Shown here in pieces: positions 5,360 to 41,724 of a DNA stretch of 64,000 nt (within the stretch, counting starts at the first letter, position 1; each line of letters opens with the position of its first letter). The notes beneath the pieces are model-generated. The model saw only the letters and a program-made list of their open reading frames with translations. It searched no databases and was not told the DNA's origin. The position numbers and the translations under genes were made by a program. Source of the DNA: Escherichia coli 042 (GTDB taxonomy: Bacteria > Pseudomonadota > Gammaproteobacteria > Enterobacterales > Enterobacteriaceae). The stretch lies in assembly GCF_000027125.1 (NCBI RefSeq), contig NC_017626.1; one strand, written 5' to 3'.

Positions 5360-7594
5360 CTAACTCCCGTGCAACCGACGCGCGTCGATAACATCCGGCA
5401 CCTGGTTGAGTTTACCCAGCACGCGCCCCAGCACTTGCAGGTTGTAAATCTCAATGGTCATGTCGATGGTCGCCAGTTGCTGTTTGGTATCGCTACGGCT
5501 GGCAACGCCAAGCACGTTCACTTTCTCATTGGCGAGAATGGTCGTGATATCACGTAACAACCCACTACGATCATTAGCCACCACGCGGACCACCAGCGAA
5601 TATCCGGCGGAGTAGCTCTCACCCCATACCGCGTCAACAATGCGTTCTGGCGCATGGGAGCGCAGTTCCGCCAGTTGTTCGCAATCGGCGCGGTGTACTG
5701 AAATACCGCGTCCCTGGGTAATGAAGCCGACAATCTCATCTCCAGGAATCGGCTGGCAGCAGCGCGCGATGTGGTGCATCAGGTTACCGACACCTTCAAC
5801 CACCACACGACCGTTATCTTTACTGCGGTTTTGCGGCGTATAGCTTTTTTGCTGAAGTTGCTTCAGCGCGGCGGCATCCTGCTCTTCGGCACTCGGCTTA
5901 TTAAATTGCGATTGCAGGAAGTTCACCATCTGATTGAGACGGATATCCCCGCCACCAATTGCCGCCAGCAACTCGTCGACATCATTGAAGTTGTAACGCG
6001 GCAGCAGATGTTTTTCTGCTTCTTTCAGGCTGATCCCCAGATGTTCCAGCTCGTCGTCAAGGATTTGCCGCCCAGCCAGAATGTTTTTGTCACGGTCCTG
6101 TTTACGGAACCAAGCGTGAATTTTCGAACGCCCACGGCTGGTTGTGACGTAACCGAGGTTTGGGTTTAACCAGTCACGGCTGGGGTTCGGCTGTTTCTGG
6201 GTGATAATTTCAATCTGGTCGCCCATCTGCAGCTGGTAGGTGAACGGCACAATGCGCCCGCCTATTTTTGCCCCGATGCAGCGGTGTCCGACATCACTGT
6301 GGATGTGGTAAGCGAAGTCCAGCGGCGTTGATCCCGCAGGCAAATCAACAACATCACCTTTCGGCGTAAAGACATACACCCGGTCGTCAAAGACCTGGCT
6401 GCGTACTTCGTCGAGCATTTCGCCGGAATCAGCCATCTCTTCCTGCCACGCAATCAGTTTACGCAGCCAGGCAATCCGGTCTTCATGTCCCGAACGTGCG
6501 CCGCCAGCAGCCGCGCCCTCTTTATATTTCCAGTGCGCAGCAACACCCAACTCTGCATCTTCATGCATCTGTTTGGTGCGGATTTGGATCTCAACGGTTT
6601 TGCCACCCGGCCCCAGAACCACGGTATGAATAGACTGATAACCGTTTGGTTTCGGGTTAGCGACGTAATCGTCAAACTCATCCGGCAGGTGGCGATAGTG
6701 AGTGTGCACTATCCCCAGTGCGGCATAACAATCCTGTAAACGCTCGGCGACAATACGTACCGCACGCACATCAAACAGCTCATCGAAGGCGAGGTTCTTT
6801 TTCTGCATTTTGCGCCAGATGCTGTAGATGTGTTTCGGTCGACCATACACTTCAGCTTTAACGCCTTCAGCTTTCATCTCAGCGCGCAGATGGCCGACAA
6901 ACTCTTCGATATAGTGTTCGCGGTCGAGACGGCGTTCATGCAGCAGTTTTGCGATGCGTTTGTATTCGGTCGGGTGGAGATAACGGAAGCAGTAATCTTC
7001 CAGCTCCCATTTCAGTTGTCCAATCCCAAGACGGTTCGCCAACGGCGCGTAGATATTGGTGCACTCTTTTGCCGCCAGTACGCGTTCATCTTCCGGCGCG
7101 TCTTTTACTTCGCGCAGATGAGCAATACGCTCTGCCAGTTTGATGACCACGCAGCGGAAATCATCGACCATCGCCAATAACATCCGGCGAACGTTATCGA
7201 CCTGTTCGGAGGAAACAGAATCGGTATGCGTCGCTTTCAGCTGGCGGATCGCCGCCATATCACGCACGCCGTGAATAAGGTTAACGACCGACTTACCGAC
7301 GCTCTCACGCAGCACATCTTCGCTGACTACGTTGGCATCCGCCAGAGGGAACAGCAGCGCCGCCCGCAGCGTGTCAATGTCCATACTTAATGTCGAGAGG
7401 ATCTCCACCATCTCAACACCACGCCACAATAACAGACTGGCATCCGGATGCCCCTGCGTCTGTTGCAGACAATACGCCCAGGTTTCGGCTAAGCACTCAC
7501 ACGACTTCTGGCTGGTAATACCCAGACTTGCGATCCATTTTTCCGGATCAAATTCACCAGCCTTATTGATATGTGCACTTCTTACCGCAACCAT
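5360..7594 (-). CDS. relA: GTP pyrophosphokinase, (p)ppGpp synthetase I
   Basis: 744-aa ORF ending RRLHGS; recognised as E. coli RelA. Confidence 0.97.
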   Translation of the reverse strand: MVAVRSAHINKAGEFDPEKWIASLGITSQKSCECLAETWAYCLQQTQGHPDASLLLWRGVEMVEILSTLSMDIDTLRAALLFPLADANVVSEDVLRESVGKSVVNLIHGVRDMAAIRQLKATHTDSVSSEQVDNVRRMLLAMVDDFRCVVIKLAERIAHLREVKDAPEDERVLAAKECTNIYAPLANRLGIGQLKWELEDYCFRYLHPTEYKRIAKLLHERRLDREHYIEEFVGHLRAEMKAEGVKAEVYGRPKHIYSIWRKMQKKNLAFDELFDVRAVRIVAERLQDCYAALGIVHTHYRHLPDEFDDYVANPKPNGYQSIHTVVLGPGGKTVEIQIRTKQMHEDAELGVAAHWKYKEGAAAGGARSGHEDRIAWLRKLIAWQEEMADSGEMLDEVRSQVFDDRVYVFTPKGDVVDLPAGSTPLDFAYHIHSDVGHRCIGAKIGGRIVPFTYQLQMGDQIEIITQKQPNPSRDWLNPNLGYVTTSRGRSKIHAWFRKQDRDKNILAGRQILDDELEHLGISLKEAEKHLLPRYNFNDVDELLAAIGGGDIRLNQMVNFLQSQFNKPSAEEQDAAALKQLQQKSYTPQNRSKDNGRVVVEGVGNLMHHIARCCQPIPGDEIVGFITQGRGISVHRADCEQLAELRSHAPERIVDAVWGESYSAGYSLVVRVVANDRSGLLRDITTILANEKVNVLGVASRSDTKQQLATIDMTIEIYNLQVLGRVLGKLNQVPDVIDARRLHGS

Positions 7595-14690: not shown

Positions 14691-16043
14691 TTATTGCCCC
14701 GCGACAGGTTTCAGCTCGATACGCTTGATATCGCCCACCAGCACCAGGTAGCTCAGCACCGCGATTAAGGCATGAACACCAACATAAATCAGCGCCCCAT
14801 TAAACGAGCCAGTCGTGCCAACGATATAACCAATTGCGATTGGCGTGACGATGCCAGAAATGTTACCGAACATGTTGAACAGGCCACCGGAAAGACCGCT
14901 GATCTCTTTTGGCGCGGTATCTGCCATTACTGCCCAACCCAGCGCCCCGATGCCCTTACCGAAGAAGGCCAGCGCCATAAAACCGATGATCATCCACTCA
15001 ACGTTGACGTAGTTGCAGAACACCATCACCATCGACAGCAACATGCCCATTACGATCGGTGTTTTACGCGCAATGTTCAGCGATCCCGTGCGGCGCATCA
15101 GCCAGTCGGAAATAATCCCACCCAGCACACCGCCGATAAAACCGCAAACCGCCGGAACGGAAGCCACAAAGCCCGCTTTCAGAATCGACATCCCACGCGC
15201 CTGCACCAGATAAACCGGAAACCAGGTAATGAAAAAGTAAGTCAGGGCGTTGATACAGTACTGACCGATATAAACGCCGATCATCATCCGTGACCCGAGC
15301 AGCTGTTTGATCTGCCCCCACTTCACGCTGAACGGCACTTTAACTTTGGTATTTTGCTGATCCATATTGATCAGCGCGCCACCCGCGGCGATGTACTCCA
15401 GCTCTTTCTGATTTACACCCGGATGTTGATTTGGCTCGTGGATGACTTTCAACCAGATAAAGCTGATGACAATGCCCAGACCGCCCATAAAGAAGAAGAC
15501 GTGTGACCAGCCCACTTCATGCGTCAGCCAGCCCATAATCGGCGCGAAGATCACCGTTGCGAAGTATTGAGCGGAGTTAAAAATCGACACCGCCGTTCCC
15601 CTTTCCTGCGCCGGAAACCAAGCCGCAACAATGCGACTGTTGCCGGGGAAAGATGGCGCTTCAGCAAGCCCGACCAGGAAGCGCAGCGTAAACAGGGCAA
15701 CGATAATGCCGAATCCACTAAAGATATCGACGAAGCCTTGCAGCAAGGTAAACATCGACCAGATAAAGATCGACCAGAAGTAGACGCGTTTTGAACCAAA
15801 ACGATCCAGCAACCAACCACCAGGGATCTGCCCGATAACATAAGCCCATGAGAAGGCAGAGAACACATAGCCCATTCCCACGGGATCAAGGCCGATATCT
15901 TTGGCCATTTCCGAACCGGCAATAGAAAGCGTAGCGCGGTCGCCGTAGTTGAAGGATGTGACGATAAACAACATCACCACTATCCAGTAACGAGCATTCG
16001 TGCGTTTTTCCACACTGCTCGCAGCCTGACTTAAAGAACTCAT
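14691..16043 (-). CDS. gudP: MFS glucarate/galactarate transporter
   Basis: 450-aa polytopic membrane ORF at the head of the gudPXD operon. Confidence 0.9.
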
Positions 16044-16370
16044 TGTTGCACTCCTGAAAATTCGCGTTAGCCACGCTCACTCTGGACTGCGACATCGCCA
16101 GGAAATCAGAGGTGACGTAGGGTGTTTTTTGCCGTTTTTATAGGTCGTTCGCCGAATACGGCGCGTGTTTATATCTGGCAATAGCAGTATAAAAAGCGCG
16201 CCATAGCGGCTCACCGTGCAACAACACAACATTAATGCGTTCAATGAGGCCCAATTTTGGCATTAGCCCTGGACGGTGGAATCCACTTCACGGAAATGAA
16301 AACAAGAACAAGAAAGGAAGGGTTAAAACGAAGAAATAAAGAAGAGTATGAAATGGATCGCTTGACTCCA

Positions 16371-16423
16371 GGCAAACGCCAGTAAAAATCCGCGCTATGA
16401 AGCAGTTTTTACTGGCATTTGCC
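16371..16423. repeat. Large imperfect inverted repeat (18-bp arms, 17-nt loop) in the yqcA-gudP intergenic region
   Basis: ggcaaacgccagtaaaaa ... tttttactggcatttgcc, one mismatch. Confidence 0.7.
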
Positions 16424-16441
16424 TGAAAAGATTCGATTCAG

Positions 16442-16501
16442 CACCGCTAAAACGGCATTTACACCGCTAAAACGGCATTTACACCGCTAAAACGGCATTT
16501 A
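16442..16501. repeat. Three perfect tandem copies of the 20-bp unit caccgctaaaacggcattta, followed by a partial fourth
   Basis: Read directly; begins 17 bp beyond the yqcA stop codon. Confidence 0.9.
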
Positions 16502-16517
16502 CCGCTCGCTGAACGTA

Positions 16518-16967
16518 TCAGGACAACAGCGTGCCCCAATGTTCGACCCACGGATTTGATTCCGTTTCCGGTTCCGGGTTCTCACTGGCGTCAATCAACA
16601 GCATTTCTCCCACTCGCTGAGCGCTCTGTTCCTGCAACAAGGCATCGAACTGTTTGCCGCCATTGCAGAAATTCACATAACTACTGTCGCCGAGCGCAAT
16701 CACGCCATAACGCAGATTCGGCTGGAAGCCCAGGGTATCTTTGATTCCCTGAAAGAGCGGCACAATGCTATCAGGAAGGTCGCCCTGCCCGGTCGTGGAC
16801 GTAACCACCAGAACATACTTATCCTGATAGGGCAGCCAGTCGCTTAATTCAGGATCTTCAAATACCGTTGCTTTGTGGCCCTGTGCGGTCAGAATTGCTT
16901 CTGCTTCTTCCGCCACTAACAGCGAATTTCCGTACATGGTGCCGACAAAAATACCAATTTCCGCCAT
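16518..16967 (-). CDS. yqcA: Flavodoxin-like protein YqcA
   Basis: 149-aa ORF with flavodoxin signature ([15 protein letters not shown]). Confidence 0.85.
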
Positions 16968-16984
16968 ACCGTTTTCTCCCTGGA

Positions 16985-17767
16985 TTAGGAACTTATCTCT
17001 CCATCCTGACCCGATGGCGCACTGAACTCAACCCTTTCATTTTCAGGAAGCAGACCGCGCCAGCCAAATTGTGATAACGCCTGCATCCAGGTGTCGTCCA
17101 GGCCCGCGTGAATAGTCAGCGGCTCGCCAGTAAAAGGATGCGTCAATGACAACTGACTGGCATGCAACATTAACCGCTGAAGGCCAAAATGTTCAGCACC
17201 GCTGCGATTCTGGCGTAAATCACCATGTTTGCTGTCGCCAATAATCGGGTGGCGCAAATGGGCAAGATGGCGACGGAGCTGGTGCTTGCGTCCGGTTTTC
17301 GGCTCCAGTTCCACCAGGCCGTAGCGCGTGGTCGGGTAACGTCCGGTCGCTACCGGCATTTCTACGGTCGCCAGACCGCGATAATGCGTCACTGCTGGCT
17401 GTGGGCCTTTATCTTCGCGGGCAAATTTATCAGCGATTTTGTCCAGTTCTTCCACCAGTGGATAATCCAGAACTGCTTCTTCCATCAACCAGCCGCGCAC
17501 AATCGCATGGTAACGTTTCTGGATTTGGTGCTGTTCAAACTGTTGTGCCAGCAGCCGTCCGGCCTCGCTGGATAATCCCATCAACAACACACCAGAAGTT
17601 GGTCGGTCCAGACGATGAGCAGTAAACACATGCTGGCCTATCTGGTCACGCACGGTTTGCATGACCACTACTTTCTCGTCGCGATCCAGCCAGCTGCGGT
17701 GAACCAGCCAGCCGGAGGGTTTATTTACCGCAACCAGCCATTCATCCTGATAGAGTATTTCCAGCAT
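16985..17767 (-). CDS. truC: tRNA pseudouridine65 synthase
   Basis: 260-aa ORF with RluA-family catalytic motif ([12 protein letters not shown]). Confidence 0.85.
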
Positions 17768-18096
17768 TAGCTCGCATCATCCGCAAAAAGAGCATCCAGT
17801 TTTTCCAGCTCAGCCAGAATAAGCGCGCGTTGCGGGTGGTCCGTCGCCAGCGCCATTTCATAATAGGGTGCAACGGCAAAAGCGCCCGGTAACGGCTGGT
17901 TGTTATCTAACAAATCGTGCATTCGCGGGATCAGCACCCACTGCAACCACTCCAGTGGTTCCATGGTGTCCATAAAGAACGGTTGGGTACTGTTAAATTG
18001 ATGCGGCTGGGGTTCATCGTTTTGCCAGTGCTGATGTTCACGCAGTAATGCTTCAAGCGCCTGCAGCTGGAGACGAACGCGGTCATGAGTGGTCAT
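17767..18096 (-). CDS. yqcC: DUF446-family protein YqcC
   Basis: 109-aa ORF, stop overlapping truC start; synteny. Confidence 0.8.
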   Translation of the reverse strand: MTTHDRVRLQLQALEALLREHQHWQNDEPQPHQFNSTQPFFMDTMEPLEWLQWVLIPRMHDLLDNNQPLPGAFAVAPYYEMALATDHPQRALILAELEKLDALFADDAS

Positions 18097-18141
18097 AAAG
18101 CAACCTCAATAAGAAAAACTGCCGCGAAGGATAGCAGGAAT

Positions 18142-18507
18142 AAAAAAAGGGAGCACTGTATTCACAGTGCTCCCGGTTCGTTTCGCAGCATTCCAGCTAC
18201 TTTTGTTGCTCCCTGCTCATCCTTGACAACTTTTCCTCTGGCCTTGCGGCCAATCGTTCATCCTGAACTATTGCTTCCTGCTCACACCACCCCGATGTGA
18301 TACTTCATCCTGAAGTGTCCCTGGCCTTCCTGGCCCACCGAATCATCCTGACCGGTTCTCATTCTCCATCCTGGAGGTGTCCTTTAACGCGTCCTGCGTC
18401 ATCCTCTTCGCTTCATCCAGAAGCCTTTCCCTGAAACACCATCCTGGTGTGTCCTTCAGAAGTGTCATCATCCTGATGTTCACTTCGTTGTCTGACTCCC
18501 TGTCGAC
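18142..18507 (-). ncRNA. csrB: CsrB small RNA (CsrA-sequestering sRNA)
   Basis: Minus strand begins GTCGACAGGGAGTCAGACAACGAAGTGAACATCAGGATG and carries at least 10 CAGGA(U/A)G-type GGA motifs; ends in hairpin gggagcactgtgaatacagtgctccc plus U-run at 18149-18174. Confidence 0.85.
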
Positions 18508-41405: not shown

Positions 41406-41418
41406 GCGCATCCACGGA

Positions 41419-41495
<77 letters not shown>

Positions 41496-41528
41496 ATTAA
41501 AATTTGATGAAGTAAAGCAGTACGGTGA

Positions 41529-41605
<77 letters not shown>

Positions 41606-41639
41606 ATCAAAATTTGATGAAGTAAAAGCAGTACGGTGA

Positions 41640-41716
<77 letters not shown>

Positions 41717-41724
41717 ATTATTGA

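Follow-up and report, generated by a model that had tools for sequence, protein, structure and literature searches.

A clade-restricted 20-bp tandem repeat of variable copy number and a separate terminator-like hairpin in the yqcA 3′ untranslated region upstream of gudP in Escherichia coli

The perfect tandem array between yqcA and gudP in E. coli 042 is a clade-restricted minisatellite, or variable-number tandem repeat (VNTR): it occupies one locus, its copy number varies among strains, and it changes faster than its flanks. From sequence comparison we conclude that the neighboring inverted repeat is a separate, older element, which appears to have descended from a bidirectional intrinsic terminator. 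The best overall explanation, which we consider probable, is that the array is a VNTR generated by slippage or exchange and that the inverted repeat is a conserved hairpin of the terminator type. Both elements are previously undescribed but of known kinds.

The analyzed window is a 64-kb (64,000 nt) stretch of the E. coli 042 chromosome. The intergenic region at 16044-16517 is bounded by gudP and yqcA, both encoded on the minus strand, and open reading frames (ORFs) and annotation place the repeats between these two genes as first described. Upstream of yqcA lie truC, yqcC and then the full-length gene for the CsrB small RNA (18139-18498, minus strand; Rfam RF00018, 383.9 bits), just upstream of yqcC. 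The array and the hairpin are both located inside the yqcA 3′ untranslated region (3′UTR), as follows.

16518-16967, minus strand: yqcA (flavodoxin) coding sequence, from its ORF and from how MG1655 and other genomes are annotated at this locus
16518-16520, minus strand: yqcA stop codon
16502-16517, minus strand: 16-nt spacer from the array to the yqcA stop codon, a flank that MG1655 and strain 1190 also have after their single copy
16442-16501, no strand: tandem array of 3 × 20 bp, with the unit CACCGCTAAAACGGCATTTA on the plus strand and TAAATGCCGTTTTAGCGGTG on the gene strand
16370-16424, minus strand: long hairpin with a 19-bp stem, in which AGGCAAAUGCCAGUAAAAA (16424-16406) pairs with UUUUUACUGGCGUUUGCCU (16388-16370)
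14691-16043, minus strand: gudP coding sequence, gene 1 of gudPXD, from its ORF and annotation

The initial annotation described three units without a mismatch at 16442-16501. Tandem Repeats Finder returned the same array (16442-16502, period 20, 3.0 copies, 100% matches), and a repeat search found three identical 21-nt copies at spacings of 20 and 20, confirming this description. The score of 122 is the highest among the non-tRNA arrays in the window; a 110-bp tandem array of 2.7 copies at 41417-41718 corresponds to three consecutive tRNA-Met (CAT) genes (41419-41495, 41529-41605 and 41640-41716), a cluster of the metZ-metW-metV type. When up to three mismatches were allowed, the 20-mer matched just the three array sites in the window and had no match in 100 shuffles. 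The genome search proposed for further copies found none elsewhere, the 20-mer being confined to one locus per genome in the window and in 5,426 complete E. coli genomes. A partial fourth copy had also been claimed: CCGCT does follow the array at 16502-16506, but it belongs to the ancestral flank and is also found after the single copy of K-12. The pentamer ACCGC occurs at 16443-16447 and at 16501-16505. The heptamer GGCATTT is present in both the unit and the inverted-repeat arm, as noted from the start; by our own rough estimate, a 7-mer common to the 20-mer and the 53-nt repeat is expected by chance in about 8% of cases.

To compare copy number across the species, we used a 460-bp query with anchored flanks, which matched 5,425 of the 5,426 complete genomes. 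Among 60 of the matched genomes, sampled systematically, 57 loci span 420 bp, corresponding to one copy, and include those of a K-12 MG1655 derivative, O157:H7, O104:H4 and an ST648 strain; one locus of 480 bp holds four copies and one of 520 bp holds six. A two-unit query, which matches only where two units adjoin and yields one hit fewer than the number of copies, detected the locus in 170 of the 5,426 genomes, on the chromosome every time. Of these 170, 102 gave full coverage of a three-unit query and so carry three or more copies. About 5,255 genomes (97%), K-12 included, thus have one copy, while 170 have two to six and 68 of them exactly two; the two-unit-query sample gives estimates of ~82 genomes with three copies, ~17 with four, at least two with five and at least one with six. 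Alleles of one (L003), two (L004), three (L007 and the window), four (L005), five (L006) and six units (L002) were read directly, and all units within them are identical.

The comparison across genomes therefore bears out one of the roles first suggested, that of a copy-number-variable repeat: the locus has one to six copies, and the number differs among strains with identical flanks. Three copies cannot be regarded as a trait of the E. coli locus, because 97% of genomes are single-copy and the expansion is restricted to one clade. The chance that the repeat is an artefact of assembly or sequencing, a concern raised in the initial annotation, is close to nil, given that at least 59 independent complete genomes share the three-copy allele at 100% identity and that 102 such genomes have three or more copies. 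The single copy of MG1655 carries one single-nucleotide polymorphism (SNP), located inside the heptamer, and the remaining intergenic region is nearly the same as in the window. A dimer of the K-12-type unit was found in no complete E. coli genome, and only the G-variant unit, with stronger CCG/CGG pairing, has ever been expanded. Outside Escherichia the 20-mer unit is absent, and unrelated sequence follows yqcA in Citrobacter and Salmonella.

The tempo of these changes was examined by comparing 9.4 kb of flanking sequence (7 kb on the gudP side and 2.4 kb on the yqcA side) among 14 sequences. Six strains with 3, 3, 4, 4, 5 and 6 copies, which originate from Mexico, Pakistan, the USA, Switzerland, Poland and Hungary, show zero differences over these flanks. 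The two-copy strains form a separate haplotype with 58-76 differences from the six-strain clone, the window represents a third haplotype that is 89-117 differences away, and K-12 is about 212-230 away. The expanded state is found on several flanking haplotypes, which have the immediate yqcA and gudP alleles in common. Alleles of three to six copies on the same flanks show that the number of units varies inside one clone and changes faster than point mutation. The lab-derived isolates described as 'capsule spontaneous mutant' each keep three copies, which hints that the array is stable over short passage. In the four-copy strain FDAARGOS_1288, sdaC is split by an IS1 insertion (15751-17816 of its locus sequence) that is unrelated to the repeat.

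These alleles suggest that a 20-bp stretch of the yqcA 3′UTR was tandemly duplicated in one clade and that whole units have since been gained and lost, most likely through slippage during replication or unequal exchange among the identical units. Microhomology was nearly lacking for the first duplication, as the ACCGC pair flanking the unit is 18 bp apart and not 20, whereas later steps would need only the misalignment of identical units. Slippage assisted by a DNA hairpin is unsupported, because neither strand of the array, taken as single-stranded DNA, is more stably folded than shuffled sequences. The array would need no function of its own, although its neutrality is an assumption.

Between the array and gudP lie five sequence blocks, separated by variable sequence, whose positions relative to the gudP start codon are constant in many enterobacterial genera; the hairpin is located between the first two blocks listed here.

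16434-16441, minus strand: block b1 CTGAATCG, about −398 from the gudP ATG and immediately downstream of the array on the gene strand
16347-16366, minus strand: block b3 GTCAAGCGATCCATTTCATA, with GTCAAGCGAC..TTTCACACT at −323/−310 from the ATG in all genera, directly after the hairpin
16286-16301, minus strand: block b4 TTTCATTTCCGTGAAG, an inverted repeat TTCA-N6-TGAA at −258, always 65 bp from b3
16231-16210, minus strand: conserved 22-mer TGTTGTGTTGTTGCACGGTGAG at −188, part of 16186-16231
16192-16186, minus strand: −10-like TTATACT, at −149 from the gudP start codon

The region 16186-16231 is the probable core promoter of gudP; a 24-mer in it is 96% identical across genera, and Citrobacter has a promoter-like match ending in TATACT. 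In other genera b3 reads AGCGA-N6-TCACA, and E. coli has TCATA instead of TCACA. Sites of the form TGTGA-N6-TCGCT are listed as strong CRP sites (PMC12871828), and b3 resembles such a site in sequence. The blocks together look like an uncharacterized control architecture of gudPXD. A pyrimidine-rich tract of ~55 nt, CTCTTCTTTATTTCTTCGTTTTAACCCTTCCTTTCTTGTTCTTGTTTTC (16296-16350, minus strand), lies between two conserved blocks and is constant in length but variable in sequence across genera. A sigma-54 promoter in GGCATTTTCACTGC was considered and rejected, since by eye its GG-N10-GC is not kept in E. coli or Citrobacter.

The position of the array upstream of gudP had suggested an iterated binding site for CdaR, the gud regulator, or for another DNA-binding protein, such that more copies would recruit more protein upstream of gudP. 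The heptamer common to the unit and the hairpin arm fits this proposal, as do the unit junctions, which read GGCATTTACA and resemble the conserved GGCATTTACA/GGCATTTTCA beside the hairpin in other genera. We nevertheless regard it as very unlikely. In 97% of E. coli, K-12 included, there is one unit only, which in K-12 even has a SNP inside the heptamer, and other genera that retain every conserved block upstream of gudP lack the unit; moreover, 250-310 bp separate the array from the likely gudP −10 downstream of it. The garP-garD control region, which belongs to the same CdaR regulon as gudP, holds nothing similar: its 374 bp contain no match to the 20-mer or the hairpin arms with up to 3 mismatches in 16, and the only string in common is GCGC..TTATACT at the probable −10. 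Being single-copy in most genomes, confined to one locus, absent outside Escherichia and lacking a garP/garD counterpart, the array gives the idea of a CdaR-binding element no support. A look-alike of b4, TTCA-N5-TGAA, does occur in the garP-garD region.

The inverted repeat, first described with 18-bp arms at 16371-16423, is real and slightly longer: its 19-nt arms (16370-16388 and 16406-16424) enclose a 17-nt loop (16389-16405), the one arm mismatch forms a G.U pair on the minus-strand RNA, and the arms are extendable to 35 nt at 77% complementarity. The predicted RNA fold reaches −40.1 kcal/mol (z −9.2) on the gene strand and −31.7 kcal/mol on the other strand. The hairpin starts 93 nt past the yqcA stop codon in this strain and 53 nt past it in one-copy strains. 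It is present species-wide, at 99% identity or more in 4313 of 5425 E. coli genomes, with a median of one place per genome (blastn, word 11). The E. coli version has a full stem without a following U-run, its U5 run falling inside the stem, and a promoter and terminator consensus scan did not call it a terminator in E. coli and found nothing in the array either. The hairpin most likely ends yqcC-truC-yqcA transcription and would thereby shield the gudPXD control region from read-through.

The remaining role first proposed for the repeats, a 3′UTR structure of yqcA, is plausible insofar as the array lies between the yqcA stop codon and the first strong hairpin and folds on itself. On the yqcA-strand RNA the array is predicted to fold at −29.3 kcal/mol (z −3.3, a stability matched by no shuffle out of 200), with pairing between units via G.U-containing helices, while the RNA of the opposite strand has no such fold (z +1.0). 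Folding of the yqcA 3′UTR thus gives a self-paired array on the gene strand, followed by an inverted repeat that looks like a terminator hairpin. In modelled alleles of 0-6 units, each unit gains about −10 kcal/mol and the neighboring hairpin has a pair probability of 1.00 throughout; extra units are therefore predicted to add a self-paired RNA hairpin upstream of the terminator hairpin, which stays intact.

An effect of the array on mRNA stability or termination is conceivable from these models. A stronger version holds that the array is a selected, contingency-type tuning element, whose units lengthen the yqcA 3′UTR hairpin and thereby alter mRNA stability or termination and read-through into gudPXD. 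The strand-specific fold, its gain in stability with every added unit, the variation of copy number within one clone and the fact that the sole expanded unit is the G-variant with stronger CCG/CGG pairing all accord with it, but the predicted terminator hairpin is unaffected by copy number, the allele sizes spread over 2-6 as drift would give, and the expansion occurs in just 3% of genomes. On balance we find selected tuning unlikely. If true, copy number would determine the amount of transcription or mRNA decay that continues past the next hairpin into the control region of gudPXD (glucarate/galactarate), in a carrier clade that includes the uropathogenic ST69-type clone.

To trace the hairpin outside E. 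coli, we collected 80 loci from other species via YqcA. The hairpin and its flanks were found in other Escherichia, in the Citrobacter amalonaticus, koseri and sedlakii groups, in Salmonella arizonae and diarizonae, and in Superficieibacter. In an alignment of 23 sequences, 73% of the cells of the 19-pair stem are paired, as opposed to 29-47% when the stem is slid by 1-3 columns. No shuffle among 500 matched the covariation score of 0.184, and sliding the stem gave 0.108 at best; for example, alignment columns 43/75 hold A-U in seven sequences, C-G in six and U-A in two. Only the inner stem carries this signal, which comes from Escherichia, Citrobacter and Salmonella alone, and the outer three stem pairs (GGC/GCC) exist in Escherichia only. 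In Citrobacter sp. MGH106 the hairpin center reads CCTTTC-ATTT-GAAAGG, followed by T-runs, and it scores as terminator-like on both strands.

Other hairpins accompany this one in some genera. A distinct terminator-like hairpin immediately follows the yqcA stop codon in Salmonella, and a G+C-rich hairpin is seen by eye at the same place in Citrobacter, where the scan called none in locus L014. Because another hairpin directly follows yqcA, the second hairpin may not be the primary yqcA terminator in Salmonella and Citrobacter. Where the gudP region and yqcA are not neighbors, as in E. albertii and some Citrobacter, a different, simple terminator hairpin follows yqcA; Citrobacter sp. R56 has its breakpoint within the hairpin module. 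In Phytobacter a T-run is present on the opposite strand only. The blocks on either side of the hairpin hold a fixed spacing even where the hairpin itself is not conserved, which hints at a role at the level of DNA.

Such a role would be explained if the inverted repeat were conserved mainly as DNA, its arms forming a pair of palindromic operators for gudP and not an RNA terminator. The arm palindromes GGCAAATGCC and GGCGTTTGCC have centers 43 bp apart, and the garP-garD region has GCAAATGC and GCATATGC with centers 42 bp apart (7039-7046 and 7081-7088 of the K-12 locus L008), although this match rests on two 8-mers. Blocks b1, b3, b4 and b6 keep 65-76-bp spacing across genera despite the changing hairpin core, which also speaks for operators, as does the restriction of the outer GGC/GCC pairs to Escherichia. 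However, the inner stem shows compensatory changes, at columns 43/75 among other places, that are unexpected for two independent operators, the center is a canonical terminator in Citrobacter, and, counting further against this reading, we know of no regulator that binds the palindrome motif of the arms. We therefore give an operator pair a small but appreciable chance, and retain the terminator-type hairpin as the preferred interpretation. Palindromes of the GGC(A/G/T)(A/T)(A/T)TGCC type occur upstream of gudP at 16414-16423 and 16371-16380, within the hairpin arms, and also at 16259-16268.

The models also allow a combination in which array copy number tunes a G.U-dependent yqcA 3′UTR hairpin and the conserved hairpin lies inside a gudP module that spans genera; we consider this combination decidedly doubtful. 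Were it true, the hairpin would be part of a previously undescribed b1-hairpin-b3 module, containing a CRP-like site, in 65-76-bp phasing with the gudP promoter.

Further candidates for the region were rejected. A very basic 29-aa ORF, MKTRTRKEGLKRRNKEEYEMDRLTPGKRQ (16296-16385, plus strand), runs divergently from gudP and ends inside a hairpin arm, and in some genomes PGAP annotates a 42-aa version as hypothetical protein WP_001296328.1. As a small protein gene it fails on comparison: outside Escherichia the corresponding frames encode 3-25 aa and differ, one Escherichia lineage has a premature stop, and 8 synonymous substitutions stand against 11 non-synonymous ones. A known sRNA was also sought; Rfam 15 at E ≤ 1 gave no intergenic match in E. 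coli or in six loci of other genera, CsrB (18139-18498) being the only match. An sRNA derived from the 3′UTR (b1 plus hairpin) does not hold as a general reading, the U-run being absent or on the other strand in Phytobacter, Kosakonia and Silvania; counts of G.U versus A.C show a weak strand bias. A search of the available literature found nothing on a yqcA repeat or VNTR, on yqcA or gudP terminators, or on CdaR operator sites, and neither yqcA nor gudP is named in the supplements of PMC7815308.

Each element can be placed beside known systems. With the VNTR loci of the kind analyzed by MLVA, the array shares identical head-to-tail units, gain and loss of whole units, and alleles that differ on identical flanks; unlike them, it is variable in one clade only (~3% of genomes) and a single, non-repeated sequence elsewhere. 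VNTR or minisatellite loci are the class used in MLVA typing. The phase-variable contingency repeats of Haemophilus and Neisseria lie in promoters or coding regions and have units of 1-7 bp. The yqcA array likewise changes in number on a clonal time scale, but its unit is 20 bp, it lies in a 3′UTR and it has no evident on/off logic. As in operator and iteron arrays, its direct repeats of ~20 bp are at helical-turn spacing, whereas the array is not conserved in copy number or species range, nor across co-regulated promoters.

The inverted repeat resembles bidirectional Rho-independent terminators in having a stem-loop with an A-tract and a T-tract after a stop codon, in the scoring of its Citrobacter orthologue on both strands and in the covariation of its stem. 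It differs from them in that the E. coli hairpin has a 17-nt loop in place of a G+C-rich core and pairs its A and T tracts inside the 19-bp stem, with no U-run after it. Being intergenic, palindromic and hairpin-forming, the yqcA-gudP elements are also reminiscent of REP/BIME, ERIC/IRU and MITE sequences but are single-locus. The hairpin and the 20-mer are each found at one locus per genome, and since a sensitive search gave one copy per genome, the hairpin is not a REP, ERIC or MITE element.

These results remove the triple repeat as a false lead in the regulation of gud genes in E. coli. Because alleles of three to six copies occur on identical flanks in one clone, the locus is a within-clone length marker, which could add typing resolution for a lineage that includes an O15:H18 ST69 isolate. 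Upstream of gudP, the hairpin and its flanking blocks belong to a conserved and apparently unstudied architecture that is relevant to the use of oxidized sugars in the inflamed gut.
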